Positions 2,991 to 46,620 of a DNA stretch of 46,620 bases are shown here, piece after piece. The notes below the pieces were generated by a model. That model made no database searches and was not told where the DNA came from. It saw only the letters and a program-made list of their open reading frames with translations. Each line of letters starts with the position of its first letter. The first letter of the stretch is position 1. Made by a program: the position numbers and the translations under genes. Source of the stretch: Eubacteriales bacterium (lineage in GTDB: Bacteria; Bacillota; Clostridia; Oscillospirales; CAG-272); the NCBI GenBank assembly GCA_045542155.1, contig JAZQKM010000091.1, forward strand, positions 1-46,620. The letters run 5' to 3'.

Positions 2991-3023
2991 TAGGGCGATG
3001 CAATTTTCAAGAAATTGCATCGC
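2982..3023 (-). terminator. Intrinsic terminator after tag, whose U-rich tail is the -35 block of P2
   Basis: Perfect 12-bp stem GCGATGCAATTT (2995-3006) / AAATTGCATCGC (3012-3023). The minus-strand tail is CCCUAUUUACUUUUC. Confidence 0.65.
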
Positions 3024-3041
3024 TCTATTTCAATCATATTG

Positions 3042-3961: not shown

Positions 3962-3976
3962 ATATGCCCCACCCCA

Positions 3977-22300: not shown

Positions 22301-25300
22301 AATGATGGTTGCGTGGAAGCTTTGGAGCTTTTCGGAAAGCGTAAGGCTTTCAAGTTCGGTACAACGGGCAAATGCCTGGCCGCCCAGAGATACGACATTG
22401 TTAGAAAGAACGACGTTAGTGAGGCCTGTGCAACGTGCAAATGCATACTCACCAATATACATATCATCGCTGCCGCCCTCGAAGACGAGATTGGTAAGAT
22501 CGCTTGCTTCGTAGAATGCGTAGCTGTGGATCTTGGTTACAGTCGAGGGAACGGTAAATTCACCTGCGCGAGCCATTGGGTAGAATACCAGCTCCTTCTT
22601 ATCGGCTGTCATCAGAACGCCATCAACGGAGGTGTAGTAAGCTCCGTTCGCATCCTCAACAGTAACAGAAGCAAGAAGATCGCAGGACTCGAATACGCGA
22701 GCTCCGTTTGCAAGAGGAGTGATCACATCACCGGTATAAGAGGTGTAGGTGGCCAATCTCGCGGGAAGAACAACGGATTCAAGCAATGCCGCATTGTAGA
22801 ATGCATTTGCACCGATGGTGAGAGGAAGATCTCCGCCCATCTCAAAGGTGATAGAGGTAAGCGTGTCATACAAGCCGTAGAACGCATTTGCACCGATACC
22901 GAGTCTGTCATAGGTCTCGCCGCTGATGGGGTCGGTGTATGCAGGCAGGTTGTGTACGCTCTTGGGAATTACGAAGGATGCCAGGTTGGAGTTGTAGAAG
23001 CACTCCTCACCAATGGTGGTAAGGCGAGGATTGTCGCCGGAAATAGTAATGCTCAGCTCGTCTGCGTAATAACCCGCATATTTGAAGGTTGCATTACCAA
23101 GAACGGTAAGACGGGAAGGAAGTTCTACGGTTTTGAGCTCTTCGCAGTAGTAGAATGTGTTACCGCGATAAATGTCGGTTTCATACATTCCCATGCTTTC
23201 ATTGTAGTAAGTGTCTGCAAAGGTGGTGCCTATAACGAGATCCGCGGTGCCATCCTCGATAACAACACTTTCAAGCTTGGTGTAAGCAAATGCATAAGCA
23301 CCAATGGTTTGAACGGTTGCAGGAATGGTAATTTCGGTAAAGTCGTAGGAAGCATCCCAGCTGGAGCCGTAAGCAAATGCAAAAGCACCAATGGTTTCAA
23401 GAACAGAATCGGCTTCAAACGTAACCTTACCCAGACTCAGGCAATCCATAAACGCATAATTACCAATGGTCTTTACGGATGCGGGAATAATGAGATCTTC
23501 AACAAAAATGTTTTCTCTGAACGCGCTATCCCCAATGGTCTCCAATTGAGAATTCTCAACTGTGAGCGTTACGTTCGGGTAAGCTTCGATACCTTCCCAC
23601 CAATCCTCGTAACCGCCGAAGCAGTAAGCGCCAATGGTCTTTACAGATGCGGGAACAGTAAGATCAAGATCTGCGCCCCAGAATGCATACTCGCCAAGAG
23701 AAACGATTCCCTCGTTGAGTGTGATGGAGTCTGCTACAGTTTCATAAAATGCGTAATCGCCAATGGATACGGTGTGTGCGGGAAGTGCGAGTGTACCGAT
23801 GTCTGCACCTCTGAACGCGTTTGCGCCGATGGTGAGCGTGCCGGTAGCATCGCCCTCAAATGTGAAAGTATCAATCTTTGCAGAGTTAAACGCATCGTCA
23901 CCGATAAAGGTAACTGTATTGCTGATGGTAAGCGTGCCAAGATTTACATTTTGGAATACACCGTTGGTAATGGAGGTGATAGTTGCGGGAAGCTCAAAAT
24001 CACCGCTCTTGCCCTGCGGGAAGAATACGATCTCGGTCATAGCCTTATCGTATACTACGCCTTCAACAGAGGTGAGGTATTGAGAATTCTCATCAACATT
24101 CACTGCCTCAAGAGAGGAGCATCCGGTGAATACGCCGGGAATCTTGGAAACGTTTGCGGGGAGATTTACGGTCTTAAGACCCGTGCAATTCATAAAGGCA
24201 TTCTCACCAAAGGAAAGCGTTCTTTGGCTTGCTACAAAGTTTACTGTTTGCAGTGCGGTGCAGTTTGCAAATGCAGAAGCACCAACAGAGGACATCGTTG
24301 CGGCAAATGTGAATTCCTTCAGGCTTTCACATCCCTGGAATGCGCTCTCGCCGAGCTTGCCCAAACGGCTGCCTTCATTAAAGGTTACGGTTTCAAGCAC
24401 CTTACAATTCATAAAGGCGTATTTATCTACCTCAAGATCGTTGAGTGCAACACCGTTAAAGGTAATGGCTTCAAGATTTTCCAGTCCGTAGAATGCACAT
24501 TCACTGATCAGAACAAGAGAACCGGGAAGCGTTACCTCGGTAACGAAATGGCAACCAATAAATGCACCCGCTCCAATGTTCTTCGTGCCCTCGGGAACAA
24601 CGAACGTACCCTGAACAGACGCAGGAACGAAGAGAAGGTTTTGGCCATTCTTAGAGTAAAGGATACTATCGATAGCCATATAATTTTGGCTGTTGGAAGC
24701 TACGGCAATCGATGCAAGTGCGGTACAACCGGTAAATGCACTGTCACCCTCAGTGGTGTTGATGCCGTTCTTATCAAAGGAGTATCTTTGAAGCTTGATA
24801 TCGGTAAGTCTTGCGGGAAGAGTGATCTTTTCAAGACTCGTGCAGTTCATAAACGCTCTAATACCGATGGTGAGCGGAACAGAGGTGCCGTCACTGTTTA
24901 CCTCAAATACAACAGAGGTGAGGCTTGCACTGTCCTTAAATGCTTCTCTGCCAATGGTCGTTACCTCGGGAGTAATGATGACCTTGGAGATAGAGGAGCT
25001 TGCAAATGCTGCCTCGGGAATTTCGGTAACGCCCTCGGGAATGCGGAACGTTCCGGTCTTTGCCATAGGTACAAGGGCTATCTTGGTGGTGCTGGGGGTG
25101 CCAATGTCAAGAAGTACGCCCTCTACAGATGTAAATGCAGGGCTTGCAACGCCTTCAACATCATATACATTGATTGCGACAAGAGAAGAGCATCCCTCGA
25201 AAGGAGAGATCATAGAAATCTGCTCAATGGTTTCGGGAAGATTGATAACCTCGAGGTTAGAGCAGTTTGTAAAGGCGTTACCTGCAATAAATGCAACAGG

Positions 25301-28000
25301 CAGGCCACGATAGGTTGCGGGAATGGTCAATTCGGTCACAAGAGCGATTCTCGCGCCCTTGGATACGGCATAAACGTCCTTGCCGTTTACTCTGGTAGGA
25401 GTGAAAGAAAGTGTTTCATCAACCCAGAATGCATAGAGCTCCTTGCCCTCGGTGAGGCTCCAGGGAGCAAGGCTGTTACCGCTGCCATCGGTGTACTGAA
25501 CACCCATACCGTAAGGAGCGGAGAACCAACCGCCAAATGCACCTGCAACACTGCTTGCTGTGGGAACAGTAAGGGTGTAGTTGCCGTCGAAGCTTACCCA
25601 ATCGGAGGTAAGGGAGCCGGTTCCGCCAACACCGTAGTTGTAGATGATTTCGTATTTCTTTGCACTATAATAACCGTAAAGCACGATATCGCCGCTTTCG
25701 GCAAAAATAGCATCATTATAAGCCGCACCGTTGCTGGTTGCGCCGCCGGGAACGTTGTACCAAGCTACAAAATTATAACCTGCCTTCTCGGTGGTGGGGA
25801 GAGTGATGGGATCACCTACAGCCTTGAATTGGTTATCAACAGGCTCGCCGCCAAGTGTATCAAAGATAACACGGTGCGCGGTTACGGTGGTGGTAGCCCA
25901 ATCGGAAACGTTCTTGCCATCAACAAAACGAACCTTTACGAGGTTTTCACCCTTCTTATTCAGGGTTACGAGTGCGGAATATGCACCGCCCTCTACTCGA
26001 ACGATCTCGCCGTCGTTTACCTGGATCTCATAGTACTGTGCTCCGATAACGGGAGTCCAGCTGAGCTTGCCGTTGGCATAAGAAACCTTTTCATTCAATT
26101 CATAGTAGCACGCTACGAGCGCATCGGATACCAAAGAATCGGTAGTGCCCTTTGCCTGAACAGTGAGCGTGTATTCCAAGCCTTCGATAACATCTAATAC
26201 AGAGGTAAGATCGAAGGCGGTGGTTGTGCTTTCATATGCGGTACCATTTACGGTTACCTCATACTTCTCTGCTCCGGCAACTGCATCCCAACTAAGGACG
26301 TTACCGTTAAGAAGAAGGTTTGCGGGAGTACCGAGAACAGCCTTGTTGAATACATACTCGGATGCTGCGGGAGAATTATAACCTTCGGATTTAGCATAAA
26401 CCTTAACAACGATGCCACCTTCAAGAGCATCACATTCCTTAAGGCTTACATATGTCTGAGTACCAAAGTTAACAAAGTCATGGTTGTGTGCAGAGTTGCC
26501 GCATTTAACCGAAACCATGTAACTCTCTGCAGAAGCAACCTCGTTCCAAACAAGGGTCTGAGTTGCTTCGTCAAAGCGGAAACCGCTAACGCTATCAAGA
26601 TTCTTGGTAACTGTAAATACGTCAGAAGTAGAGGAAGCGTAGCCATCTGCTACTGCGGTAACGGTAAATTGAATACCGCTTGCAGTCATGGTGCAGTTGG
26701 CAAAGTTGAAGGTTCTGGAAGAACCGTTATCAAATGCAGTGTGGTTATGTTCGGGATTACCGCACACTACAGTAATAAGATACTTCTCTGCATTTTCAAC
26801 AGTGTTGAATACGAGAACAGAGCCGTCTACAAAGAACTCAGAAACTTTAGTGAGAGCCTTGTTTACATAATATCTTGTAGCAACGGAGTCGTTCTGCTCT
26901 CCGGAATTTGCCTTGGCAGTAACAACGATCTCGTATTTGCCTGCACTCCAATCGCCAAAGGAAACATTCATAACGGTTGCGGCAGTGGAAGCATCTACCA
27001 TAACCTCTCCGTCCTCTGCAATGATCTTAACATCGTAAGCTCTTGCGTTTTCAACAGAATTCCAGCTGATGTTGTTTGCCGTAACATTAACGATCGGCAC
27101 TGCAAGCTTGGAATCGGTAGGCTTTGCTGTCCAGAGCGCAAAGAGCGTGATGTTTGCGTTGATGGACATATTGTCCTCATACTTGTAGGAAAGTTTGTTA
27201 CCGTCGGATTCGGTGCTAAACCACCAACCGCCAAAGGTATAGCCTTCTCTATCAAGGACAGGCAGATCAAAGAGCTTGCCGCCTGTAGTGATTTCATCTG
27301 CCAGCACAGCAGCATCTTCGTAGTTTGCATCCAGCTTTACGGTATATTCCTTGCCGGTAACGCTTTCAGCGATCCATCTTGCATAAACGGTCGTGTCAGC
27401 GGTTACGGGAGCAGAGCCAAATGCGTAAGCATTCTTAAACTCAGCGTCTGCATACCAACCGACAAATACAAAGCCGGGACGGGTAGGATCCGCAGGCTTG
27501 GATGCGCCCTTACCGTTGAGAACGGTTTGAGCAGCTACCTCACTACCGCCGTCAACATTGAAGCTAACGGTGTAGTTGAGCTTTTTCAACAAACGCATAC
27601 TTGCGTTGTTGTAGGTAAGGGAAATTACGTCACCCTCGTATGTAGCGGTTACGTCGCTAACACCTTCCGCGTTAAAGTCGAGCACAAGCTGACTGTCGGT
27701 AAGCGTATACTTACCCGCGCTGAGCTCGCCCTTTACATAAAGGGAAAACGTATCGCCAACATTAAGCGTTAACGTATTTTGGAAGTTTACATCATCAAAG
27801 TAGTAAACTCCGGCTTCAGGCCATTCGGTCTTGAATGTCTCGGTGTTGTTTGTACCGGGATCGTCGTCACCGGGACCATCGTCTGGCTTTCCGCCAAGAC
27901 AAATCCAAAGTACCACGCCAACGATAATTGCTACAGCAAGAACAGAAGCAGCAATTATGAGACACAGCTTTCGGTTTTTGAGTAAATTTTTGAATGTCAT
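19391..28000 (-). CDS. Giant (2869 aa) N-terminally anchored surface protein: Listeria-Bacteroides repeats, Fn3-like modules, ~1770-aa BspA-type LRR_5 array, PPC-like C-terminal domain
   Basis: TM LCLIIAASVLAVAIIVGVVLWICLG. Flg_new-type units (GFVFVGWYAD...VYARW; GYTFGGWW...LFALW; GYNFVAWY; NYIFNGWYDN...IYAKW). W..V..A..Y.V Fn3-like modules. LRR consensus IP..V..IG..AF..C..L from about aa 890 to 2658. GGAGAAAAAGCT RBS. Confidence 0.9.
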   Translation of the reverse strand: MTFKNLLKNRKLCLIIAASVLAVAIIVGVVLWICLGGKPDDGPGDDDPGTNNTETFKTEWPEAGVYYFDDVNFQNTLTLNVGDTFSLYVKGELSAGKYTLTDSQLVLDFNAEGVSDVTATYEGDVISLTYNNASMRLLKKLNYTVSFNVDGGSEVAAQTVLNGKGASKPADPTRPGFVFVGWYADAEFKNAYAFGSAPVTADTTVYARWIAESVTGKEYTVKLDANYEDAAVLADEITTGGKLFDLPVLDREGYTFGGWWFSTESDGNKLSYKYEDNMSINANITLFALWTAKPTDSKLAVPIVNVTANNISWNSVENARAYDVKIIAEDGEVMVDASTAATVMNVSFGDWSAGKYEIVVTAKANSGEQNDSVATRYYVNKALTKVSEFFVDGSVLVFNTVENAEKYLITVVCGNPEHNHTAFDNGSSRTFNFANCTMTASGIQFTVTAVADGYASSTSDVFTVTKNLDSVSGFRFDEATQTLVWNEVASAESYMVSVKCGNSAHNHDFVNFGTQTYVSLKECDALEGGIVVKVYAKSEGYNSPAASEYVFNKAVLGTPANLLLNGNVLSWDAVAGAEKYEVTVNGTAYESTTTAFDLTSVLDVIEGLEYTLTVQAKGTTDSLVSDALVACYYELNEKVSYANGKLSWTPVIGAQYYEIQVNDGEIVRVEGGAYSALVTLNKKGENLVKVRFVDGKNVSDWATTTVTAHRVIFDTLGGEPVDNQFKAVGDPITLPTTEKAGYNFVAWYNVPGGATSNGAAYNDAIFAESGDIVLYGYYSAKKYEIIYNYGVGGTGSLTSDWVSFDGNYTLTVPTASSVAGAFGGWFSAPYGMGVQYTDGSGNSLAPWSLTEGKELYAFWVDETLSFTPTRVNGKDVYAVSKGARIALVTELTIPATYRGLPVAFIAGNAFTNCSNLEVINLPETIEQISMISPFEGCSSLVAINVYDVEGVASPAFTSVEGVLLDIGTPSTTKIALVPMAKTGTFRIPEGVTEIPEAAFASSSISKVIITPEVTTIGREAFKDSASLTSVVFEVNSDGTSVPLTIGIRAFMNCTSLEKITLPARLTDIKLQRYSFDKNGINTTEGDSAFTGCTALASIAVASNSQNYMAIDSILYSKNGQNLLFVPASVQGTFVVPEGTKNIGAGAFIGCHFVTEVTLPGSLVLISECAFYGLENLEAITFNGVALNDLEVDKYAFMNCKVLETVTFNEGSRLGKLGESAFQGCESLKEFTFAATMSSVGASAFANCTALQTVNFVASQRTLSFGENAFMNCTGLKTVNLPANVSKIPGVFTGCSSLEAVNVDENSQYLTSVEGVVYDKAMTEIVFFPQGKSGDFELPATITSITNGVFQNVNLGTLTISNTVTFIGDDAFNSAKIDTFTFEGDATGTLTIGANAFRGADIGTLALPAHTVSIGDYAFYETVADSITLNEGIVSLGEYAFWGADLDLTVPASVKTIGAYCFGGYEDWWEGIEAYPNVTLTVENSQLETIGDSAFRENIFVEDLIIPASVKTIGNYAFMDCLSLGKVTFEADSVLETIGAFAFAYGSSWDASYDFTEITIPATVQTIGAYAFAYTKLESVVIEDGTADLVIGTTFADTYYNESMGMYETDIYRGNTFYYCEELKTVELPSRLTVLGNATFKYAGYYADELSITISGDNPRLTTIGEECFYNSNLASFVIPKSVHNLPAYTDPISGETYDRLGIGANAFYGLYDTLTSITFEMGGDLPLTIGANAFYNAALLESVVLPARLATYTSYTGDVITPLANGARVFESCDLLASVTVEDANGAYYTSVDGVLMTADKKELVFYPMARAGEFTVPSTVTKIHSYAFYEASDLTNLVFEGGSDDMYIGEYAFARCTGLTNVVLSNNVVSLGGQAFARCTELESLTLSEKLQSFHATIISNCSKLAAINVGANGQGVYFSSIDGVLYNADKSALIVYPLAKTNEELIVDANVKVIYTTAFANNTYITKVVLPEGLVEIQSNAFEFCYGLKEVNIPSTVQKIDTRAFYYCSALDTVTFTQGSDDLLIIGDNAFANTSSLKSIALPARLYSIGNNTFYLTGLESITFAENSALVEIGDYAFSQTPVIELAIPAGVVKIGNFAFFDCKALLSITFQEGLISIGDYAFAGSDELLSVSFPASLKTLGASVFYYYAYDEYTCSSLESVTFAPNSQLESIPAGTFAYTALKTFTVPASVTVIEGTETNPSYKMPSAFYEVTTLESVYFENGSQCAEIGAYTFESSSLKSIELPTSVSTIGMYAFRYCNSLESIVIPETVTNIGTGAFWQCRALTEVDLRSKTTELNDYLFYGCESLTEITIPASVSVIAVNAFEKAGLAAFNVDPRNTTYKAVDGILYTADGTGIVMIPAQMVITNFVVPNTVTSIGERLFYKLSSLETLVFEGGRTMPLTIGTEAFAECTNLRSIEFTEMITSIGVEAFYGCSALTTVTIPSDMTESVFVTELYYGEQYSGAFYYCSSLIEVCNKSQIELEPGSTKCGYLAAYAIRVYSEGESSVASNNGFTTITLENGDIYLLSYTGSETNVTIPEGITHIYAGAFGEGVEHVTFASTVKVVMSQAFYGSTVKTVTLNEGLEVIDEDAFYYSDLESLTLPTTVKKIGESAFYGSALQGSIALPESLETIGSGAFYYVEGMITFLVPVASAPEGWAADWNEYDYYDNHMVLWGFTGEEITYTFNTMGGSAVESITSAEPITLPAAPTRENYIFNGWYDNEACEGEALTGPYYNGTVTTIYAKWMTQEEFNAQFAGTSFEYAIELQLGETKTYFLAERWEEAYYKITVTESGNYTFSLIGGDTYMCGYDDPEGYYNWYNYSEWNGEDYVDNIKTGVSLEAGVTYYIVFYSYNDNTELTITVTKD

Positions 28001-36849: not shown

Positions 36850-39800
36850 TTACTCGACGGTGTTGCCATTATCATCGGATGACTCTTCCTTTTCGCTGAC
36901 AGGCAACTCTTCCTTAACGCTTACGTTCTGCTTCTTCTTTTTCATAAGCACTACAGTAACCGTCGCAGCACCGCCGATAACAAGTACAGAGCCAACTACG
37001 ATCAGCACAATGACCCATACTTGAAGTCCTTGCGGAGGTTCTGCGTTATCGTCTACAATAGGAGTATCTTCTTCTACTCCAACATTTTCGGCGTAGGAAA
37101 GACCGAAATCAACGGTTTTGCCATAAAGTTCATTGAGCGCCGCGATTTTTGCATCCAGTACAGATGCATTGGTAACGAGTTCCTTTTCCTCAGCGGTAAG
37201 AGCATCATAAGCTTTCTTTGCATCTTTAACCTTGTTAAAGCAATATTCAAGCTTATCCATGTCAAACAGATGGGCAATCTTGCCTTCTACTACGTCAGCG
37301 TTGTACGCCTTGCGTACATTTTTAAATGTAGTCAGTACCGATTCGTCAACGAAAGCCATATCCTCGCTATGTCTTTCAAGAGCGTTGTATGCGGTAATAG
37401 CTGCATTTACCAGGAGAGTATCAAATCTGTCTACGTCAGTGGGGAGTTTGTTTACTGCCTCGATGAACGCGTGAGCATACTTTCCTGCGGTTACGCCGGA
37501 CGTTTCCTCAGCAAAGGTGAAGTATGCGTTGTAAATGAGAGTATCATAACCTTCACAGTTATCGGGAAGGATTGCCACAAGATCTGCTGCAGATTTGTGT
37601 CCTACAACACCAATAAAGGTGCTGTAATAATAAGGAGCAGCAACCTCGCTTTGAGTGAGATAGTAGAAGCTGTACTTATACAGAGAGTCAAAGCCGGTAT
37701 AATCAGAAACGTTTTCAAAGTTGATCTTAATTTCTTCACCGGTCATAGTTCCCTCAAGCACGGGAGCATAATAGGACTTAAATACAACAGTATTTAGCTT
37801 TTCGCAACCTTGGAACGCGTAGTTTCCGATGTATTTAAGAGTGGAAGGAAGAATTACCTTTTCAAGGTACTTATTACCGAGGGCTGCACCGAATTCAATT
37901 CTTACAGTGCCTTCGATAACGGCATACTCGGGATCTTCCTTAGCGGCGGGATAGGTGGTAAGGATGTAGCCCTTATCGCTCTTAACATAAAGAACACCCT
38001 TATCAAGAACAACATTTTCCAAAACCACGGTATCGAGGCCCTCACTGTTAACCAAACCCTTGAAGGACTCACTTCCCTCAAAAATGTTAAAGTCTACGTC
38101 CTTGAGAGAATCGCCGATTACGAACTGCTCCATAGCGGTGTAAGCAAATGCACCGTAACCAATGCTTTCAAGAGCGGGAGCCGTTACAGATGTAAGTTTT
38201 TTGCAACCTGCAAACGCTTGATCGCCAACAAAGGTAAGCTTGGGAGCATAAACGCTAACCAAATTGTTCGTTCCAAACTCTACCCCGTTATTGTTAAGCG
38301 TCTCAACAAACGCATAACCGTCTATGTACTCTACGTTGTCGAGAGAGAGAGCTTCAGGCAGAGGAACTGCACAGAATGCACCTTCACCGATCTTAACCAG
38401 ATGAGAAAAGTCAATATCGGTAAGAGATGTGCAGCCATAGAAGGTATATCCGGAAACCTCTTTAAGTGTTTCGGTAAGAGCAACAGACTCAAGTGCCTCG
38501 CAAAGAGCAAATGCACCCTCACCGATAAAGGTTACCTTGGGAAGGTCAATAGACTGGAGACTCAACGAACCGTAGAAAGCGTAGTCGCCTACGTATGTGA
38601 GTGCGGGGAGATTTACGGATACAAGCTTGTTAACATAGGTTGCCTTTTCATCGTTAGGAGCAAAGGCATTATTGTTGATCTTTTCAAGACGCTCTGCGCT
38701 GAATTCACTAAGACTTGCACAATCGCTAAATGCACCTTCGCCAAGTTCGGTAACATAAGGCGCTACAACAGATGCAAGAGAGAGACACTTGTAGAATGCG
38801 AAATTGCCGATCTTGCCCGTTACTTCGCTAAAGTCAAAGGAAGTAAGATATGCACAAGAATAGAATGCGCTATCACCAATGGTAGCATCGCCCAAGAGAT
38901 CAACTGTTTTAACAGCAGACTCTGCAAATGCTAACTTTCCTATGTTTACGTTAGCGGCGAGCTTAACAGTCTCGAGAGACTGATTACCGTAAAATGCACC
39001 GTCGCCAATCGTTTGAACGTTGGAAAGGTCAACATTCTTAAGATACGACATGGCAAATGCATACATACCAATATCGGTAACCATAGAAAGGTCGATCGTT
39101 TTAAGCTCGGAGGTTGCATAGAATGCATATTCCTTAATAGAAATCGCTTTTTCGGGAAGCACAACAGTAGTCAGTGCGCTGCAGCCCGCAAATGCATTCT
39201 CTTCAATGGTAGTAAGTTGTGAACCGGGGGCAAATTCTACCTTTTTGAGTTTGCTCAGAGAGGAGAATGCGCCACTGCCAATTTTTACAACATTTGCAGG
39301 AACAACAAACTCGGTTTTGGTGCTATCGGGAATAACAAGAACGAGTGTGGTCTTATCCTTGTTGTAGATAACACCATTTTCCTCAACATAGAGTGCAGAG
39401 TCGGCAACGTCAATGCTGACGTTTGTTTTGTAAGCCAAGAAGGGAGTTATGCCGATGTAGGCAAGCTCGGTGTTTTGGGAAAGCTTAATGGTAAGCAGCT
39501 TGCAGGAATCGAATGCACTATCCCCAATATTAATCTTTCCATCGGGGAGCTTAACACCGGTAAGCTTTTCACAACCGCTGAATGCGTAATCACCAATCGC
39601 CTCAACAGACTTCTTAAACTCAATGCTCTCAAGTCGCTCACAATCCTTAAAGGCTCTTGCGCCCAAATAGGTAATGTCATTGGCAATCACTACACTCTTG
39701 AGGTTTTTGGAACCTGCAAAAGCATCATCAGCAATGCTATCAGCATAGACAGTGACCGAAGTCAAACCACTGTTCTCGAACATCTTAGAGGAAACTCTGG

Positions 39801-42800
39801 TGCTGGAACCCAACTCAACGGAGGTCAGCTTGCTGCAATTTGCAAATGCACTCTCTCCGATTCTTGCAAGGTGGGTAAGTGTCAAATTGGAGAATCTGGT
39901 GCTTGCAAAGCCAAATTTACCTACCGTGTAGATTTCAGAAGTTTTTGCTCCGCCGATCTCTTCGCAAGAGAGACTCTTGCAATTGTTGAATGCATAGTCG
40001 GAAACGATCTTAACATGATCGAAATTTACGTTTTCAAGAATGATACAATCCTCAAATGCATGCTCGCCAATCTGCTTACATGTGGAAGGAAGCGTTACGT
40101 TTCTAAGTGCAGTACAGTTGTAGAAAGCGTATTGGTTAATGAATTCAACGCCCTCAGGAATGACAACAGAGGTTACGGTATCGTTACCGATAGCCGACTT
40201 CTTTTCGTCCAAATCATAGTAACCGTTTTCGTCCTTCTCTACCTCTTTCTCGTTATCCAGATCATAGTGAGAGAATGCGAAATCGCCGATATAAATAATT
40301 CCTTCATCATCGGGGATCACAACCTCACCACCCTTACCCTTGTAGGCAATAAGTGTTCTGTTTTCAATGATAAATTCACTCTTTACTTCAACAGAAAGTC
40401 TTGCTGCAAGAGTAGAAGTTTTTCCGTCAATGGTGATCTTAAGGGTAATTCTGGAGTTACCTTCAGCCTCCGCAGTTACTACACCGTTTTCATCAACAGT
40501 AGCAACCTTGGGGTTACTCGACGTCCAGGAGAGCGTGTATCTATCCTCGGAGATATTCCAAGGCTTAAGCAGAGGGGTAAGCTGTATCTTTTCGGAGGGG
40601 TAACAAGATACGCTATAGTTGCCATCGAAATAGTGAACCGAATCAGTTCTGCCGATTTCGGAATAATCGATGTCACTGTTAAATGCAAATAGTGTTTTGT
40701 AAGAGACGAACTCTAACGATTCAAGCAATACATTATCGCCTGAATTGGGATTATCGGTTATAACAGTCTCGGAGACATTTACCGTCAAGTACTTAAATGT
40801 AGGAATGTTTACGGTAATTCCGTTCGACGTTGTCTTTGTGATCCAGCTGTCACTGGTGACTCGTACAAGCGCCGTACCGGATTTCAACGCCTCAATTTGG
40901 CCGTTTTCAATAGCTAATACATCGTCAACGGGTTCCCATACGTCGTTTACCCAATGACCAACCTCCCACTTAAGCGTGTGGAGATAATCGCTGTTAACAG
41001 TCTTGGTGGTATCTTCGTATACAAGGAACTTGGTGAGATCGAAGGTCTCGTTAATGTCGAGCTCGATTTCATCTTCCATAAATTCCAGATCCTTGCCGTC
41101 ATCTGCAGTAGAGGGGAAAGGAACGTAGGTGATGGAAGCGTTCATTGCATAGTCGTCAAGATAGAGTGTCACGCCGTTAGGCATGGTGGAATCCGCAATG
41201 ATATCCAGATAGTCGGTAAGCTCGATAGTGACCACGGTATTTTCGCCGCGATTGGTCTGATATACTGGAATAGGATACTCGGTAAGGGAAGCGTAGGTCT
41301 TTTCAATATCTCCCTTTTCGGGATCCCAAATCTCGTACACCGCAATGGGGCGAACCGACATAACATAATGGTTATCGAATACGGTAAGATCAAGATAGTA
41401 TCTGTTCTCTTCTCTTCCCTTATCGTACTCGGTTCTGAAATTGGAACTGATTACAGCAGGAGCTTCGTAGTCGATATAGAACGAGAAGGAGTAGGAGTCG
41501 GAGATGTTTTCGCCGCCCTCCCAGTCGAGCTTGGCGCTCATGGTAACCTCAAGCTTGGTATTGTTGTTACCCAGTACTTTTCCCGTTTCAAAATCTACAG
41601 ACGGAAGATTGAATTTAGCAAGATAGGGGTACGGAGAACCGTTGAAGTGTGCCTTGTAACAGTTGTATTGCGTGTCTTCCCATACAACCTCACCGGTGGA
41701 AGTATCAACAATTTGAATATTGAGCTCTTTAGCGCCTCTGAGAAGTCCGGCAAATACACCGTAAATACCGCTGATACAGTCTGCATAGTAAGAAACAGCT
41801 GCTTTTTCCTGCGTTGCGGGAATTGCGTTATACTTGGTTTCATCCATCTCGTAAACGTAACTGCCCAAAGGAAGGATGTAGTCATAGTAGTAAGTACCCA
41901 GGGGGGTCGTTGCGTAATAATCTGCTTTGATCTTGTCTTCGTCGTCAATAGCATCGTTGTGTGCCTCGGTTTCAACCTCATAGAAGTCAAGGTCAAAGAT
42001 CGGAGCCTCGCTCCAATCGCCATAGAAGGCAAGGAAAGGAGCATTGAGGTCGATGCCGTTCTCTTCGGTGCTGGTGAAGGTCAAATAACCCTCAACGTAC
42101 ATACCGTTTTCAAACGTAGCGTTAAGATAGCTCTTATCCTTAGCCGACAATGTGAGGGTTACGTTTATCTTTGCGGTTTGTCCTGCCGCAACCGAAACCA
42201 CACCGTCTACAAGGGTGCCCCCTTCAACGCTATACTCGGAACTGTTGGAAAGCAGATACGCCATTTCTGCTACGTACTCAGGTTCGGAAGCGGATATGCT
42301 TTCGGTCATGGTAATGTTACCGAGCTTGTAGGAGAGTGTGCGATCGGAAAGGTTGGTCAGATTGATGCTCATCTTGTAGACGCCCGTACGGTTGGGGTCA
42401 TCCTTGAGCTCAAGCTTGGTCTTGTTGATACCGTCAACATGAAGGTATGCGGGAGTCGTGGTGGATTTTGCGATATCGGCAATACCTGCACCCTGTTTTC
42501 TTGGGGAGTAAGGGTTGCCCTTTTGGTCGAGTGCGATGGTCGCAGTCGACATAGTAAGCTGGTTAACGAGGTCTCTTACCTCGGTTGCGGAAAGCTTGGG
42601 GAAGGTTTCCTTTACGTACTGACGGATCAGGACGGTAATACCGCACATATTGGGAGCAGCCATACTCGTGCCGCTCTGCTCGTCGTATTCACCGCCTACA
42701 ACGGCAGAAAGAATATTGCCGCCGTGCGCCGTGATTTCGGGTTTAAGAGTCAGGTCAGGATTAGGACCCCAAGAGGAGAAATCACTCATAAAGGGACCTG

Positions 42801-44571
42801 CTACGTTATCGAGATTGAACTCGAGTGTTCCCGATTCGTGTGCCGCAAGTCTGTCACCTTCGTCTTTACCGATAGAGACTGCAGGAATCCTTGCGTCGTT
42901 ACCAATGGTCATGGTGATGTCACCAAAAACGTTGTTGTAAATGATAACGGCAATCGCACCTGCCTCTGCGGCAAACTGTACTTTTTCTTCAAAGGTGATA
43001 TCGCCTCTCTTAACGAGTGCGATCTTACCGTACATATCAAGGCCGGTATAGTTGACCTTCATACCTACGCCGGGGATGGTAACGTACTCGTATGTTACGT
43101 TATCCCCCTTTGTAATGCCAAGCATTGCAAAGAAGTCGTATTCCTTTCCTGCGGTGTTAACCGAAGGAGTAAAGAAGATTTCATCCTTGCCATTGGCAAA
43201 CATATAATTGTCCTTTTTACCGCTAATGGATGCAACAGACATTGCAGATGTGTAGGTGGAGGGAGAACCTACGGTAGCGGAGTCGGGATTATCGGTCTTG
43301 TTGGTGTTACCTTGCTCAGAACCAAAACCACTGCTGTAATCGTTGGAAGCCGCAACTACCAAAGAAATACCTGCTTGCTCGATTCTGCTGTAAACCTCGT
43401 TCTTATACACCTTATCGGGAGCACTCTCATAAGTGAAGCCGCAGGTGGAACCAAGACTCATATTGATAGCGTCAACGCCAAGAATAACGGAGTCCTCAAG
43501 AGCCGCAATGATATCGCCTTCTTCTGCGCCTTCGTCGTAGTCACTAAAGACCTTCATAATAGCGAGCTGCGCATCGATAGCAACACCGGTGATCTTGTCA
43601 TCCTTACCCGCAATAATGCCGGCTACGTGAGTACCGTGGCTATTTTCGAAAGGCATAATGTCCGGGTCCTTGTCGGCGTAGTCATAGCCAAACGCGATCT
43701 TATTGCCGGTAATGTTACCGTAGTAAACTTCTCTTGCTTCGAGGTCGGGTGTAAACTCCTCCGCCTTGAAATCCTCTTTTTCGAGAAGGTCTGCGATCTT
43801 ATCACGGTTATAATAAGGCTTTTGGACCTCATAACTGTTGAAAGCGGTGTGAGAATAATCACAGCCGGTATCAAGAATGGCAACAATGGTTCCCTTACCG
43901 GTGTAGTCAACACTGCCGCTGTTGAAGATACCGGTTTCGTAAACGTCAACGGGATTTTCAACCGCTGCCGCCGGCAGGTAGGTGTTGGAGATCATAATTC
44001 TCTCAACGCCTTCTACCGCACTGATCTTTTCAATCATGTCGTAGGTGGTCTTAACAAAAGCACCGTCGGCAATATGTACGTAGTTGTAGCTGACGTTGTT
44101 AATCAATCCCTCTGCCATAAGCTGATCGAGCACCTTGTTTTGGTTGGCGGTAAGCTCGTTGGCATAGCTCTTGGCTGCCGCGGTATCCTTAAACTGCTCG
44201 TAAGTCATTTGACTTGCGTATTCCGATCTTGTGTAAGCAGCTACGAGGGAGTCATCGGAAAAGGTAATGATCAAGCCAACAGTACCGCGGAGTTCACTGT
44301 CCGTGATCTTCTTAACCAGATTTTGGTTAAGCGACTTGATAAGATCCTTTTTTAGTTTTGCTGTCACCTCATCTACATCGAACTTAGCGATGCCTGAGGG
44401 AGAAATTGAGGGTGAAGAGCTCTCTTTATCTACGTGTAAAGAGATATTCTCTGCCATAGCACAAATGCCTACAGCCGCTGATTGCAACAGCAAGATGATG
44501 GCAATAAAGGCAGCAAAGCACTTGGACAGCAGTACTCTTCTAGGGGTTTGATGTGTGGATTCTTTACGCAT
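36850..44571 (-). CDS. Cell-envelope S8 (subtilisin-family) serine protease with PA insert, Fn3-like and Big_2 domains, a ~870-aa BspA-type LRR_5 array and a C-terminal TM anchor
   Basis: Catalytic triad motifs VAILDTGCD (D at 43870-43872), HGTHVAG (about 43636) and SGTSMAAP (about 42664). PA domain GKIALVKRGDITFEEKVQFAAEAGAIAVIIYNN. Big_2 WTSSNPKVATVDENGVVTAEAEGNSRITL. LRR units at about 37750-40368. TM VWVIVLIVVGSVLVIGGAATVTVVL. Start set at MRKEST (ATG 44571) behind GAGGAATTCAAA. Confidence 0.9.
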   Translation of the reverse strand: MRKESTHQTPRRVLLSKCFAAFIAIILLLQSAAVGICAMAENISLHVDKESSSPSISPSGIAKFDVDEVTAKLKKDLIKSLNQNLVKKITDSELRGTVGLIITFSDDSLVAAYTRSEYASQMTYEQFKDTAAAKSYANELTANQNKVLDQLMAEGLINNVSYNYVHIADGAFVKTTYDMIEKISAVEGVERIMISNTYLPAAAVENPVDVYETGIFNSGSVDYTGKGTIVAILDTGCDYSHTAFNSYEVQKPYYNRDKIADLLEKEDFKAEEFTPDLEAREVYYGNITGNKIAFGYDYADKDPDIMPFENSHGTHVAGIIAGKDDKITGVAIDAQLAIMKVFSDYDEGAEEGDIIAALEDSVILGVDAINMSLGSTCGFTYESAPDKVYKNEVYSRIEQAGISLVVAASNDYSSGFGSEQGNTNKTDNPDSATVGSPSTYTSAMSVASISGKKDNYMFANGKDEIFFTPSVNTAGKEYDFFAMLGITKGDNVTYEYVTIPGVGMKVNYTGLDMYGKIALVKRGDITFEEKVQFAAEAGAIAVIIYNNVFGDITMTIGNDARIPAVSIGKDEGDRLAAHESGTLEFNLDNVAGPFMSDFSSWGPNPDLTLKPEITAHGGNILSAVVGGEYDEQSGTSMAAPNMCGITVLIRQYVKETFPKLSATEVRDLVNQLTMSTATIALDQKGNPYSPRKQGAGIADIAKSTTTPAYLHVDGINKTKLELKDDPNRTGVYKMSINLTNLSDRTLSYKLGNITMTESISASEPEYVAEMAYLLSNSSEYSVEGGTLVDGVVSVAAGQTAKINVTLTLSAKDKSYLNATFENGMYVEGYLTFTSTEENGIDLNAPFLAFYGDWSEAPIFDLDFYEVETEAHNDAIDDEDKIKADYYATTPLGTYYYDYILPLGSYVYEMDETKYNAIPATQEKAAVSYYADCISGIYGVFAGLLRGAKELNIQIVDTSTGEVVWEDTQYNCYKAHFNGSPYPYLAKFNLPSVDFETGKVLGNNNTKLEVTMSAKLDWEGGENISDSYSFSFYIDYEAPAVISSNFRTEYDKGREENRYYLDLTVFDNHYVMSVRPIAVYEIWDPEKGDIEKTYASLTEYPIPVYQTNRGENTVVTIELTDYLDIIADSTMPNGVTLYLDDYAMNASITYVPFPSTADDGKDLEFMEDEIELDINETFDLTKFLVYEDTTKTVNSDYLHTLKWEVGHWVNDVWEPVDDVLAIENGQIEALKSGTALVRVTSDSWITKTTSNGITVNIPTFKYLTVNVSETVITDNPNSGDNVLLESLEFVSYKTLFAFNSDIDYSEIGRTDSVHYFDGNYSVSCYPSEKIQLTPLLKPWNISEDRYTLSWTSSNPKVATVDENGVVTAEAEGNSRITLKITIDGKTSTLAARLSVEVKSEFIIENRTLIAYKGKGGEVVIPDDEGIIYIGDFAFSHYDLDNEKEVEKDENGYYDLDEKKSAIGNDTVTSVVIPEGVEFINQYAFYNCTALRNVTLPSTCKQIGEHAFEDCIILENVNFDHVKIVSDYAFNNCKSLSCEEIGGAKTSEIYTVGKFGFASTRFSNLTLTHLARIGESAFANCSKLTSVELGSSTRVSSKMFENSGLTSVTVYADSIADDAFAGSKNLKSVVIANDITYLGARAFKDCERLESIEFKKSVEAIGDYAFSGCEKLTGVKLPDGKINIGDSAFDSCKLLTIKLSQNTELAYIGITPFLAYKTNVSIDVADSALYVEENGVIYNKDKTTLVLVIPDSTKTEFVVPANVVKIGSGAFSSLSKLKKVEFAPGSQLTTIEENAFAGCSALTTVVLPEKAISIKEYAFYATSELKTIDLSMVTDIGMYAFAMSYLKNVDLSNVQTIGDGAFYGNQSLETVKLAANVNIGKLAFAESAVKTVDLLGDATIGDSAFYSCAYLTSFDFSEVTGKIGNFAFYKCLSLASVVAPYVTELGEGAFSDCASLSEFSAERLEKINNNAFAPNDEKATYVNKLVSVNLPALTYVGDYAFYGSLSLQSIDLPKVTFIGEGAFALCEALESVALTETLKEVSGYTFYGCTSLTDIDFSHLVKIGEGAFCAVPLPEALSLDNVEYIDGYAFVETLNNNGVEFGTNNLVSVYAPKLTFVGDQAFAGCKKLTSVTAPALESIGYGAFAYTAMEQFVIGDSLKDVDFNIFEGSESFKGLVNSEGLDTVVLENVVLDKGVLYVKSDKGYILTTYPAAKEDPEYAVIEGTVRIEFGAALGNKYLEKVILPSTLKYIGNYAFQGCEKLNTVVFKSYYAPVLEGTMTGEEIKINFENVSDYTGFDSLYKYSFYYLTQSEVAAPYYYSTFIGVVGHKSAADLVAILPDNCEGYDTLIYNAYFTFAEETSGVTAGKYAHAFIEAVNKLPTDVDRFDTLLVNAAITAYNALERHSEDMAFVDESVLTTFKNVRKAYNADVVEGKIAHLFDMDKLEYCFNKVKDAKKAYDALTAEEKELVTNASVLDAKIAALNELYGKTVDFGLSYAENVGVEEDTPIVDDNAEPPQGLQVWVIVLIVVGSVLVIGGAATVTVVLMKKKKQNVSVKEELPVSEKEESSDDNGNTVE

Positions 44572-44666
44572 TTTGAATTCCTCGGTTCTTTGGCTTTTCA
44601 TGCCGTTCAAAAGCTGACCGACATGAGCGAAATTAATAAATGAGTGTTTAGACACTCGTGTCTTTC

Positions 44667-44837: not shown

Positions 44838-45085
44838 AAAAATAAAATTTACGCTTTTTTAACATTTAGAAATACGCTTTAATTCAAATTTGCAATTTTT
44901 CAGTTGAAACTTTCAAAAACCCCTGCCCTTGTACCAAATCAGAGATTCTTATTCTTTGTATTTTAACAAGCAAAAAGGGGGGGCTGAGTCTTCAGATGCA
45001 GAAGGCGTGGTTTGGAGTATCGTAGGCGTACAAAGGTACAGCTAAGAGACAAAACGCGACTAAAAAGCCACATAAAACGAGGAAA

Positions 45086-45108
45086 CCCGCCGAAAAAAAT
45101 TCGGCGGA
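45086..45108 (-). terminator. Intrinsic terminator-like hairpin downstream of repeat module 1
   Basis: CCGCCGAA / TTCGGCGG stem. The minus-strand tail is GTTTCCTCGTTTT. Confidence 0.5.
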
Positions 45109-45188
45109 TTTCGGCATAAAACTATATTTTTAGTTGATCTTTATCTTTGTTTATAGGGGTGGCTTTTGTGCTGTACTAAATGAATCAG

Positions 45189-45415
45189 CCTCTTTTGTAA
45201 GTTTCGACCAAAGGTCGAAATTATCTCTTGGAGTTTTAAGAACGCCGTTTGATATCGTGAATATCGTAAAATATCGTGCGATAGCGTGTATTTATCGTGT
45301 GTTTTCGTGCGATATCGTGAACATCGTGAGTATCGTCGCATAAAGTGTTGCACCAAATTTGCACCAAAATCACACCAACATTCAATGCTGTTCTGCTCGA
45401 CAAATTGGAATTTGT
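45189..45415. repeat. Non-coding repeat module, copy 1 (227 bp): hairpin, nine 10-bp ATCGTG iterons, three TTGCACCAA-type repeats
   Basis: Aligns end to end with 46319-46556 (about 24 mismatches plus one 11-nt indel by hand alignment). ORFs predicted inside the two copies are in different frames. Confidence 0.85.
45251..45340. repeat. Iteron array, copy 1: nine contiguous 10-bp units of consensus (A/G)ATATCGTG(A/N)
   Basis: gatatcgtga atatcgtaaa atatcgtgcg atagcgtgta tttatcgtgt gttttcgtgc gatatcgtga acatcgtgag tatcgtcgca, with exact 10-bp phasing. Confidence 0.8.
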
Positions 45416-45424
45416 GTAATAGAT

Positions 45425-45997
45425 TTATCTAAGCATTTCAGCTTTCTCCCATGATTTCGGAAAACGTTTTTTCATAAATTCTTTTTTAGACTCGTTATCC
45501 ACATAAAACTTTTCACGGATAATTCCCTTAGCGATAAAGTCCACTAATTCATTTTGTCTTTCTGCTGATTGCTCGTTATACCGAAGGACTACCAATTTCC
45601 CGTCTGCTTCATATTTCAATAGTTCCTCATACACATCGGGAATGTATATCACTTCTGTCACTTTAGCATTCATTGAACAGTAAAACATATTTGTTCTATT
45701 CTCTACAACTTTAATATCCGTACTATCGGGAATGCAATACAAATACCCCGAAACTCCGTGATAAAAGGTTTTTAGCTGGTCTGGAAACTGCTCTTCATAA
45801 TATGCAGTATCATTTTTAGCCCATCCTGTCACATGCTTAGCACTGCAGCCATTATGTTCTGCATCCCACAGATAAAAGAGTGCATAAGGAATATTGTCAG
45901 TTAAGTAGACGACCTTCTCTGCTGTATTATGGAGCTTGGAACGTGCTTCCAGCTCCATAATGCCAGGGGTACAGGAACCATGATAATAACACTTCAA
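45425..45997 (-). CDS. Hypothetical protein (190 aa) with possible H-Y-E ADP-ribosyltransferase-fold motifs; AT-rich cargo gene between the repeat modules
   Basis: There is no ATG at the ORF start. TTG at 45997 follows GGGGGGTGAG by 6 nt and gives MKCYYHGS.... Promoter P3 lies about 35 nt upstream. Motifs: YYHGS, VVYLTDNIPYALFY, VTEVIYIPD. Confidence 0.65.
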   Translation of the reverse strand: MKCYYHGSCTPGIMELEARSKLHNTAEKVVYLTDNIPYALFYLWDAEHNGCSAKHVTGWAKNDTAYYEEQFPDQLKTFYHGVSGYLYCIPDSTDIKVVENRTNMFYCSMNAKVTEVIYIPDVYEELLKYEADGKLVVLRYNEQSAERQNELVDFIAKGIIREKFYVDNESKKEFMKKRFPKSWEKAEMLR

Positions 45998-46038
45998 AAT
46001 ATACTCACCCCCCAAATTCAAGTTTATCGATTAGTTAG

Positions 46039-46067
46039 ATTATACCATAAAAACGGTGAAAAGTAAA
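46039..46067 (-). promoter_or_regulatory. SigA-type promoter (P3) with the shared CCTATTTACTTTT -35 block
   Basis: Minus strand reads GTCCTATTTACTTTTCACCGTTTTTATGGTATAAT: TTTACT (46067-46062), 17 nt, TGgTATAAT (46044-46039). Confidence 0.6.
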
Positions 46068-46084
46068 TAGGACGGCCAAAGAAA

Positions 46085-46267
46085 ATGAAATCACCTACGG
46101 TGATGAAATCCGCTTTAGCGGATGAAATCTTCACTACGTTCAGATGAAATCCGAGGCAAGCCTCGGGTGATATGAAATCTGCCACCATAACCCGACGAAG
46201 TCGGATTTCATCGCGATAGCGATTTCATCCACGTAAGCGGATTTATTCTGCCACAGGCAGATTTCAT
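46085..46267. repeat. Inverted array of octamers: five ATGAAATC followed by four GATTTCAT/GATTTAT, interleaved with short hairpins
   Basis: ATGAAATC at 46085, 46103, 46122, 46144 and 46172. GATTTCAT at 46204, 46221 and 46260, and GATTTAT at 46240. ATGAAATCTGCC (46172) is the exact complement of GGCAGATTTCAT (46256-46267). Confidence 0.75.
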
Positions 46268-46294
46268 TGCACCTCAGTTCATCCAAGAGATAAC

Positions 46295-46326
46295 AAAAAA
46301 GGCTCTGCATATGCAGAACCTTTTTT
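46295..46326. terminator. Bidirectional intrinsic terminator at the edge of repeat module 2
   Basis: A6, GGCTCTGCAT/ATGCAGAACC (one mismatch), T6. Confidence 0.65.
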
Positions 46327-46556
46327 GCAAGTTTCGACCTTTGGTCGAAATTATCTCTTCGAGTTTTAAGAACTCCGTTTAATATCGTGAATAACGTGAA
46401 ATATCGTGTAATATCGTGCATTTATCGTGTGTTTTCGTCGCGTTTACGCAGGATATCGTGAATATCGTGAGTATCGTTTGATAAAGTGTTGCACCAAATT
46501 TGCACCAAGATCACACCAACATTTAACGCTGTTCTGCTCGACAAATTGGAATTTGT
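46319..46556. repeat. Non-coding repeat module, copy 2 (238 bp)
   Basis: Direct repeat of 45189-45415. Same order of hairpin (46332-46350), iterons (46381-46480) and TTGCACCAA repeats. Confidence 0.85.
46381..46480. repeat. Iteron array, copy 2: about ten 10-bp ATCGTG-type units
   Basis: aatatcgtga ataacgtgaa atatcgtgta atatcgtgca tttatcgtgt gttttcgtcg cgtttacgca ggatatcgtg aatatcgtga gtatcgtttg. Confidence 0.8.
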
Positions 46557-46620
46557 CACCCTGTATAGTTTTTGTGGAAATGGCATTTTTCCTGTCTGCA
46601 TTGATTGTTCAAGTGTGAAC

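Follow-up and report, generated by a model that had tools for sequence, protein, structure and literature searches.

Repeat modules beside a small accessory gene of an Eubacteriales bacterium as probable attachment-site arms of decayed rpsI-specific integrative elements

What are two similar, gene-free stretches of about 230 bp doing on either side of a single small gene? The question is raised by one end of a 46,620-nt stretch of DNA from an Eubacteriales bacterium of the Oscillospirales (assembly GCA_045542155.1, contig JAZQKM010000091.1), which was analyzed at its full length and is called the window below. The two repeat modules, copy 1 at 45189-45415 and copy 2 at 46319-46556, are read on the minus strand. 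A first-pass annotation, made from the sequence alone, had likened them to a cassette array or to a plasmid- or phage-derived maintenance region. We propose, with a probability of about 0.78, that the modules are the attR-side arms (right-hand arms of attachment, or att, sites) of small integrative elements specific for rpsI, the gene of ribosomal protein S9, and that two decayed units of such elements lie here in tandem. The elements are integrative and probably mobilizable.

The repeats themselves are as first described. The copies align from end to end with a single 11-nt indel and a mean column identity, flanks included, of 89% (MAFFT; 86.6% over 238 nt with blastn), and they stand in direct orientation 1.13 kb apart. 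Open reading frames (ORFs) found inside them in six-frame translation are not the same in copy 1 and copy 2, and in about 100 members of the family described below the length of the arm varies by steps of ~10 nt, which no coding sequence would tolerate; the modules are therefore non-coding, as had been claimed. Copy 1 begins 9 nt past the stop of a 190-aa gene (about 10 nt had been estimated), the boundary of copy 2 coincides with a minus-strand TGA at 46556-46558 that closes a frame open to the window edge, and terminator-like hairpins follow both modules on the minus strand (46328 to 46293 and 45112 to 45082), all in agreement with the earlier reading. From the stop codon onward, each module consists of AAATTCCAATTTGTCGAGCAG, three 11-bp TTGGTGYRA repeats, eight or nine CACGATA-type units of ~10 bp, and a 3' part that reads AAACGG..TTCTTAAAACTC(C/G)AAGAGATAA; a small hairpin, TTTCGACCnnnGGTCGAAA, and then the terminator come next.

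These modules belong to a large family. An exact 23-mer common to both window copies was used to define a set of loci with one genome per species, and at least 119 loci, hence species, carry it. Almost all are metagenome-assembled genomes (MAGs) of gut or rumen Clostridia (Oscillospiraceae, Acutalibacteraceae, and "Eubacteriales"), and many of the loci lie near contig ends. Nucleotide hidden Markov models (nhmmer) built from three parts of the window, namely the right part (R), the left part (L), and a promoter block (P), found 162 R, 122 L, and 157 P parts in these loci. Orientation is uniform within each locus, and the order P, gene, R, L is repeated. In 80 intervals from P to R, the distance from P to the start of the ORF is ~10 nt and that from its stop to R is 0-20 nt; clustering of the 80 products gave 62 unrelated groups. 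The cassette-like layout in which each module trails a different cargo gene, proposed from the window, thus recurs in the family. Pfam assigned the cargo products to HTH_3 (8), GNAT (~6), nucleotidyltransferases (5), NUDIX (3), TetR (3), and BspA-type leucine-rich repeat (LRR) proteins (2), and many are family-less lipoproteins or membrane proteins. The length of the arm from the TTGGTG repeats to the core is quantized (107 nt in 61 of 100 copies, 47 nt in 16, the others in steps of ~10 nt), and the number of CACGATA-type units ranges from 2 to ~10 depending on the copy.

A local tandem duplication with no wider meaning would account for two directly oriented copies at such a short distance. 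This explanation can be regarded as refuted, since at least 160 copies exist in at least 119 species and each window copy is nearer to copies in other species (blastn identities of 92-94% for copy 1 and 89-91% for copy 2) than to its neighbor. Outside the Clostridia, the exact 23-mer (GTGTTGCACCAAATTTGCACCAA) was also seen in the alphaproteobacterium Thermohalobaculum xanthum (L055:6866-6896), with a tRNA gene on one side and the beginning of a tyrosine integrase gene on the other, a place expected of arm-type sites. Chance should give about 0.02 such matches in the collection, and this occurrence could reflect convergence, a distant relative, or chance.

The site at which these arrays sit is the end of rpsI. 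Clustering of all ORFs of the loci placed the ribosomal proteins L13 and S9 beside the arrays in 17 loci, and a search for ends encoding QFSKR-stop gave 48 rpsI-type ends in ~40 loci. Wherever the upstream edge is visible (~40 loci), the array begins directly after rpsI and in the same orientation. The gene ends in CAGTTCTCCAAGAGATAA, followed by the same types of small hairpin and terminator that follow each module, and every module in turn ends in CTCNAAGAGATAA, the last 13 nt of rpsI, with similarity stopping sharply there. Both window modules end in this 13-nt core, which is the identity segment expected of att sites. Repeated copies of the 3' end of a target gene are the mark of site-specific integration.

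The most informative junctions are those of L140, one of the intact elements described below. Its attL runs from rpsI through CAGTTCTCCAAG directly into AGATAA, and its attR runs through AAAACTCCAAG into CGCTGA, such that the attR sequence TCC AAG CGC TGA still encodes SKR-stop. These junctions indicate that the element supplied an AGATAA end of its own and that the original rpsI end (CGCTGA) was displaced to the far junction, and they locate the crossover within CTCCAAG. In Firmicutes, elements with a tyrosine integrase are on record as integrating at the rpsI 3' end (PMC5704250, PMC5341023, PMC12904643).

Other DNA was also seen at this site. Inserts of 160-250 nt that lie directly after the rpsI end and themselves end in a second copy of 17-66 nt of that end were found in L028 (1279-1509), L049 (6816-7078), L069, L102, and L109; they share the sequence CCACCGTCGCATAGTCG...GGGCGGTTTC...AAAACAATnATCAAnTGTTTT and may have been left by another rpsI-targeting element or may represent a small RNA gene. 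The end of the 43.7-kb viral contig IMGVR_UViG_3300032167_000257 (L126:1-1113) joins phage-type DNA to GAGTTCTCCAAGAGATAA and the first array unit, and is a prophage integrated at the same rpsI site. This prophage junction was the only informative one among the viral matches to GGCGGTTCAATTTGTAAA. Five viral matches to GATATCGTGAATATCGTG were set aside as chance matches, as they fall in the coding 3' end of one phage gene family. The 23-mer and the promoter pattern had no match among viral contigs, and the 1.47-kb region of the window had no blastn match among phage and plasmid records.

Which enzyme built the arrays? Probe and profile searches of ~770 kb of array loci gave no intact recombinase other than that of the unrelated alphaproteobacterial locus, and no integrase stands beside the array in the window or in the 119 loci listed, fossils apart. 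One such fossil, in L033, is an 85-aa C-terminal remnant of a tyrosine recombinase (..HGLRHSNASLLINNGYDVKAISEHLGHCNTEITSNIYVHIFKEYKAKMAESIEHDLL-stop), immediately downstream of which come an inverted repeat, GGGCGGTTCAATTTGTAAAGAATTGAGCCGTCC, and P. The same C-terminus is represented by shorter remnants (18-48 aa, tblastn, a search in which the fragments in the loci reached up to 62 aa) in ~20 further places, always just upstream of P. When the fragments were used as queries against 5.8 billion proteins (word index) and 1.84 billion cluster representatives (exhaustive HMMER), only fragments showed close similarity; these were at most 142 aa long, with up to ~100 aa of genuine integrase sequence. 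Metagenome DNA was scanned with the end of the gene joined to the inverted repeat, and two contigs that encode an intact integrase of 386-387 aa were found. Integrases of this length with a C-terminus identical to that of the fossils are present in L135, L136, and L138. Ahead of them come an ArdA antirestriction protein and a small Xis-like helix-turn-helix (HTH) protein, and behind them the inverted repeat, P, and cargo; the cargo of L136 is a 109-aa membrane protein that is also a cassette of L049.

A protein search with the intact integrase gave 278 relatives, of which those in L140, L143, and L145 (67-76% identity) lie 5-6 kb downstream of rplM-rpsI. An integrase (Int; PF00589) directly upstream of P, cargo, and module is known from six members of the family (L135, L136, L138, L140, L143, and L145), while the window has none. 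The contig of L138 opens with the rpsI end, goes on to a 315-aa SAM-like protein, Rep_OBD, an SF3-helicase-like protein, ArdA, a 64-aa protein, and Int, and breaks within P. L140, L143, and L145 have rplM-rpsI and then 5-6 kb of element genes, the last of which encode a 61-66-aa protein and Int; in L140 and L145 these two are directly preceded by ArdA. Behind Int, L140 and L143 have cargo, R arm, and core, and the L145 contig ends in cargo. The Xis-like protein and Int are the sole genes common to all these elements.

The sequence GGGCGGTTCAATT-TGTAAAG-AATTGAGCCGTCC was considered as a simple core site of the recombinase and rejected, as its right arm is often not complementary and it lies directly after the int stop. 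This inverted repeat is more likely the terminator of int or an operator of P.

The arms of the intact elements can be compared with the window modules. Both arms carry repeats of the type TTGGTGYWA (TTGGTGCAA), which share one strand and keep constant distances to the core. The left arm has two or three of them; they lie at +92 and +103 in L138, L140, and L145 and at +92 alone in L143, with different terminators in between. In right arms they lie at -123 and -134 in L140, L142, L143, and window copy 1; L140 and window copy 1 have a further one at -145. The right arm is filled with CACGATA-type units, of which the left arm of L140 has one copy. Att sites of the lambda, Tn916, and L5 types, with their arm-type sites, served as the architecture for comparison. 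The TTGGTGCAA repeats are best tied to the Xis-like protein and Int, because these are the only genes that all the elements have in common, and by this analogy we infer that the N-terminal domain of the integrase and the Xis-like protein bind them.

The same repeats could instead be iterons or a centromere-like site of an excised circle, bound by Rep_OBD or a ParR-like protein. L138 does encode Rep_OBD and SF3-helicase-like proteins, the repeats are phased with the DNA helix, and three 11-bp direct repeats resemble the binding locus at pMV158-type RepB origins. Rep_OBD, however, was found only in the L138 and L139 elements; L140, L142, L143, and L145 have the same repeats with no Rep_OBD in the precomputed Pfam listings, and no par gene was seen in any locus. 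The fixed distances between repeats and core in both arms are those expected for an intasome. We thus regard an iteron or centromere role as very remote. The earlier suggestion of a plasmid- or phage-derived maintenance region is accordingly upheld as to a mobile-element origin and given up as to plasmid-type maintenance.

With the modules read as attR-side arms, the arrangement in the window can be explained as follows. An element would insert into the last codons of rpsI by tyrosine-integrase recombination. The intact element, read from rpsI onward, has first the core and a left arm (hairpin, terminator, and two or three TTGGTGCAA repeats), then four to six genes, ArdA in some elements, the 61-66-aa Xis-like protein, Int, the inverted repeat, P, and one or a few cargo genes, and last a right arm (three TTGGTGYRA and ~8 CACGATA repeats) and another core, in which the rpsI end is repeated. 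New elements would insert at the rpsI-proximal core, and a second integration there would leave a junction of L, core, hairpin, and terminator between the units. Older elements would lose the stretch between their own left arm and P, and the outcome would be a row of co-oriented units, each with promoter, cargo, arm, core, hairpin, and terminator. The anatomy, the linkage to rpsI, the integrase fossils, the intact elements, and the fixed repeat positions in both arms were observed directly, and a deletion series of int is visible in other loci; the units would have arisen by accretion and then deletion.

The last two units of one such array lie in the window, and neither retains an integrase. 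In the first unit the cargo gene is cut by the window edge and the arm is copy 2; the second consists of P, the 190-aa gene, and copy 1, and the array ends with the terminator at 45082-45112. Between the two cores, the unit at 45189-46363 holds one cargo gene only, and it fits the remnants of integrative elements known as cis-mobilizable elements (CIMEs). The parts, in the order in which they are read, are these:

46559-46620, minus strand: final 20 codons of the upstream unit's cargo gene; the translation ends KNYTG-stop (stop at 46556-46558) and the frame is open to the window edge.
46319-46556, minus strand: module copy 2, an attR-type arm; the AAATTCCAATTTGTCGAG junction, TTGGTGYRA repeats, CACGATA repeats, and then AAAACTCGAAGAGATAA.
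46489-46521, minus strand: TTGGTGYRA repeats of copy 2, three of 11 bp.
46381-46477, minus strand: CACGATA repeats of copy 2, ~9 of ~10 bp; the arm is 118 nt long, one unit above the canonical 107 nt.
46351-46363, minus strand: core of copy 2, CTCGAAGAGATAA, the att identity segment, equal to the last 13 nt of rpsI (from the rpsI ends of 48 sites).
46332-46350, minus strand: small hairpin TTTCGACCnnnGGTCGAAA directly after the core of copy 2, also found directly after rpsI in many genomes.
46293-46328, minus strand: intrinsic terminator, a bidirectional hairpin with T-runs, which closes the upstream unit.
46270-46293, minus strand: inverted copy of the rpsI 3' end (the plus strand reads CACCTCAGTTCATCCAAGAGATAA), which with the core brackets the hairpin and terminator.
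46083-46270, no strand assigned: palindromic array of words and hairpins, with sub-threshold Gut-1 matches on both strands.
46012-46076, minus strand: promoter and 5' untranslated region (UTR) module P (157 copies in the family), whose conservation ends sharply after GATAAACTTGAATTTG; -35 box TTTACT at 46067-46062, 17-nt spacing, and -10 box TG-TATAAT ending at 46039, all near consensus, followed by CTAACTAATCGATAAACTTGAATTTG.
45425-45997, minus strand: cargo gene of 190 aa with a TTG start, from a hypothetical-protein family of ~190 aa.
45189-45415, minus strand: module copy 1, an attR-type arm of the canonical 107 nt.
45348-45380, minus strand: TTGGTGYRA repeats of copy 1, at -123, -134, and -145 from the core as in intact elements.
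45251-45336, minus strand: CACGATA repeats of copy 1.
45221-45233, minus strand: core of copy 1.
45202-45220, minus strand: small hairpin after the core of copy 1.
45082-45112, minus strand: terminator that closes the array, followed by the promoter region and the beginning of a 2601-aa surface protease gene.

The promoter module, the 13-nt copies of the rpsI end, and the palindromic array had been overlooked in the first-pass annotation. The TTG start of the 190-aa cargo is backed by its ~190-aa homologues. The protein has no significant Pfam match, and exact look-ups of its 190-aa and 177-aa forms found neither on record. The corner of the window that holds the array is richer in AT, as had been noted: GC content is 0.36-0.40 across 44.5-46.5 kb versus 0.41-0.50 (mostly ~0.44-0.46) in the 14.5 kb profiled to its left (30.0-44.5 kb). 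No integrase, Rep, or Par domain was found by Pfam in 20 large ORFs of the window (a set without the 2869-aa ORF at 19391-28000), consistent with the earlier statement that no recombinase is visible.

The neighbors of the array are ordinary chromosomal genes, namely, the 2601-aa S8 protease with BspA repeats, an Opp transporter, and MoxR/BatA genes. Two giant minus-strand ORFs were noted, one of 2869 aa (19391-28000) and one of 2601 aa (36850-44655), and the long opposite-strand ORFs inside them look spurious. The 2601-aa product combines an S8 protease, a PA domain, BspA-type LRR, and Ig-like domains, and its gene begins ~430 nt past the array end. At the other end of the window, weak matches to P precede small unannotated ORFs (1980-2016, 2463-2509, and 2955-2997). 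The one at 2463-2509 reads CCTATTTACTTTT..TGGTATAAT, and such matches may simply reflect the strong-promoter consensus of the host.

Might the module act as RNA, rather than as DNA? The first-pass annotation had called it a structured 3' module, and a conserved 3' UTR could bind a protein through CACGAUA words or stabilize the message. The module should be transcribed, since a terminator is absent between the stop codon and the module and present after it. Its 3' end, with the bracketed rpsI-end copy, hairpin, and terminator, is predicted to fold into a stable three-way junction (z-scores of -3.4 and -6.2), and the small post-core hairpin keeps its stem through different sequences. Nevertheless, Rfam 15 gave no match inside the modules even at E <= 5 and none at the gathering score in the window, and the gene-proximal hairpin shows no covariation and has its left arm in variable sequence. 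The repeats are phased at 10-11 nt, the helical repeat of DNA, and in intact elements the TTGGTGCAA words come up again in the left arm, past a terminator and not within any 3' UTR. Furthermore, the non-functional integrase fossils beside the modules are about as conserved as the modules, which means that conservation alone is no argument for an RNA role. We consider such a role highly improbable, and the claim of a structured RNA module was not sustained.

The spacer at 46083-46270 raises the same choice between RNA and DNA. It opens with about five copies of ATGAAATC, every one of them with a small hairpin behind it, and continues with about four or five of GATTTCAT; the word is thus forward in the first half and reverse-complemented in the second. 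The Gut-1 RNA motif (RF01706; Weinberg et al., 2010; PMC2864571) matches both strands of this spacer as an inverted pair, at 35.3 and 32.7 bits versus a gathering score of 50. Matches above threshold were found at the same position, from the rpsI-type terminator to P, in L096 (2505-2690) and L038 (5197-5266). As in Gut-1, UGAAAU-type words alternate with short hairpins in the window spacer; the differences are that the window scores fall below the gathering score, that both strands are matched, and that the layout is built from different words in other loci (ATGAATTG, GTTATGA, ATGAAG, and TCGATAT). Beside the spacer, just past the terminator, the last ~22 nt of rpsI recur in inverted orientation, such that hairpin and terminator are bracketed by this copy and the core, and the same layout follows rpsI in L001, L008, L016, L038, L095, L096, and L103. 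In L033 and L137 the palindromic array runs straight into the integrase fossil. These patterns suggest that the palindromic array is a DNA-level or two-strand feature, and the orphan Gut-1 motif gains a genomic address.

Another palindromic family was seen in the spacers of other loci. GC-rich paired hairpins of a single family (GTAGGGGAGACCTGTGGTCTCCCGCGGGCGAACGCAGTTCGCCCCTAC), which resemble repetitive extragenic palindromes, fill many spacers between units in otherwise AT-rich DNA, and lie between the terminator and P in, e.g., L022, L023, L076, L093, and L100.

Several observations weigh against reading the modules as arms of integrated and decayed elements. The window ends 64 nt past copy 2 with no rpsI in view, such that its linkage to rpsI is drawn from other loci. 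Pfam assigns the first 80 residues of Int to no arm-binding family, and the arm-binding role is argued from resemblance. The left-arm repeats are absent downstream of both window cores, which argues against mobility; most units of the family likewise have none and may perhaps no longer be mobile. Further objections concern the cargo. L018 and L044 share one chromosomal context (84-89% identity), and their cargo differs exactly between the end of CTTGAATTTG and the start of AAATTCCAATTTG, with P and R modules diverged about as much as the flanking core genes. In addition, there are empty slots, in L056 (2090-2150) and L007, in which P is joined directly to R. Together these cases point to a second process that swaps cargo within a vertically kept frame, which accretion does not explain.

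The boundaries of this cargo slot are precise, as conservation of P ends exactly at CTTGAATTTG and that of R starts exactly at AAATTCCAATTTG. They came to light when a first model, in which the core was the only att component, predicted that the upstream spacer travels with the gene; comparison of L008 with L071 showed otherwise, and this pointed first to the junction words and from there to the integrase fossil. In slots with several genes, what stands between one gene and the next is a fused 14-nt junction, ACAAATTCCAATTTGACGG, or else a conserved spacer of 40 nt, AAATTCCAATAGGTCGAACAGTTAGGAAAATAAGAATTTG, which starts with AAATTCCAAT and ends with GAATTTG, its ends forming the inverted repeats CAAATTC...GAATTTG. 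Such slots occur in L115 (transcription coordinates 1361-4004), L099 (3053-3560), L140 (11780-11845), and L122 (7500-16200). The GNAT gene of one L028 unit recurs in the compact run of L115, with homology confined to -10 to +28. The run in L122 is compact as well, has 15 genes with such junctions, and lacks both the promoter and the arm modules. These junction-bounded cargo runs may form a cassette-like exchange system of their own, and the sharp boundaries could result either from homologous exchange through the conserved flanks or from some site-specific process.

Could the locus then be a platform for gene capture like an integron? In its strictest form, this would make module and P together a long inter-cassette site and the fossil the platform's former integrase, with cargo ORFs entering and leaving site-specifically just after GAATTTG and just before AAATTCCAATTTG. 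Conservation that stops sharply at both junctions, the empty slots of L056 and L007, cargo replaced exactly between the junctions in related genomes, and multi-gene slots with the minimal junction ACAAATTCCAATTTGACGG or the 40-nt spacer with its inverted-repeat ends all fit this proposal, and the cargo (GNAT, NUDIX, HTH, nucleotidyltransferase, and small lipoproteins) is integron-like. However, the integrase is of the phage type and stands at the end of ordinary rpsI-inserted integrative elements rather than beside an attI, each unit has its own promoter and terminator, and the module repeats are direct and lack the inverted R''/L''/L'/R' layout of attC. An integron attC site was itself rejected on this ground, the R''(RYYYAAC)...R'(GTTRRRY) consensus being absent at the module ends. 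Homologous recombination through the P and R flanks could give the same sharp boundaries, and no enzyme is known for the junction words. We consider this strict form improbable.

A broader form seems to us unlikely without being negligible. Here the frame of P, slot, and R behind rpsI, vertically inherited in many gut Clostridia, would be an integron-like expression platform that works through some site-specific mechanism. ORFs would be inserted, removed, and exchanged exactly after CTTGAATTTG and before AAATTCCAATTTG, singly or in short runs separated by the conserved 14-40-nt spacers with palindromic ends (CAAATTC...GAATTTG). The integrative elements would be the vehicles that spread frame and cargo between species, and the Gut-1 "RNA" motif would be one variant of the DNA-level palindromic array of this locus.

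If the modules are attR-side arms of rpsI-specific elements, as we favor, several known systems are close to them. IMESag-rpsI of Streptococcus agalactiae, McRImecD of Macrococcus, and ICE_RhoA2-183_rpsI of Roseburia are, variously, integrative mobilizable elements and islands that occupy the rpsI 3' end in Firmicutes (PMC5704250, PMC5341023, PMC12904643). The elements described here resemble them in targeting the last codons of rpsI, in having a tyrosine integrase at one end and cargo, in supplying a replacement rpsI end, and in leaving a direct repeat of the rpsI end at the far junction. They differ in their hosts, which are Oscillospiraceae and related gut or rumen Clostridia, and in their genes, which include ArdA in some and Rep_OBD and an SF3-helicase-like protein in L138, with no Pfam-recognized relaxase among the L138 genes tested. 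They also differ in having a cargo slot with its own conserved promoter between int and the right arm, and in the window only remnants are present.

Tandem accretion of ICEs (integrative elements that are conjugative) and IMEs (those that are mobilizable), and the CIMEs that remain of them, are known in Firmicutes (PMC12084326, PMC5704250). Like CIMEs, the units described here are neighbors at a single att site, have att-type repeats as their boundaries, are without recombination and transfer genes, and appear to derive from full elements by deletion; unlike them, they are extremely reduced (~1.1 kb), uniform (promoter, one gene, and arm), and spread over more than 100 species. The kind of remnant is thus already known, and is here unusually widespread.

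The resemblance to the lambda, Tn916, and L5 systems lies in a short core identity, words of 9-11 bp repeated in both arms at distances that are fixed and helically phased, an integrase that has an additional N-terminal domain, and a small excisionase; the difference from textbook att arms is the longer run of ~8 tandem CACGATA-type units, 2 to ~10 by copy. With integron cassettes the units share co-orientation, mostly single and unrelated genes that are each joined to a conserved non-coding site, and similar types of cargo. They differ from these in having no IntI or attI and no R''/L''/L'/R', in the promoter and terminator that each unit brings along, and in being anchored at rpsI.

A limited literature search found no description of the module family. 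Directly behind rpsI, at least 119 species from among the gut and rumen Clostridia have this locus, a very common and previously unannotated site of accessory genes. The frequent contig breaks of MAGs at this site are explained by the repetition of a 230-bp arm and a 70-bp promoter at ~90% identity. Together, arm, promoter, and core provide a simple search key for the arrays and for the elements that build them. If it is true that the cargo slot is a site of gene capture, these arrays would be a Gram-positive counterpart of integrons in which each captured gene has a promoter of its own.

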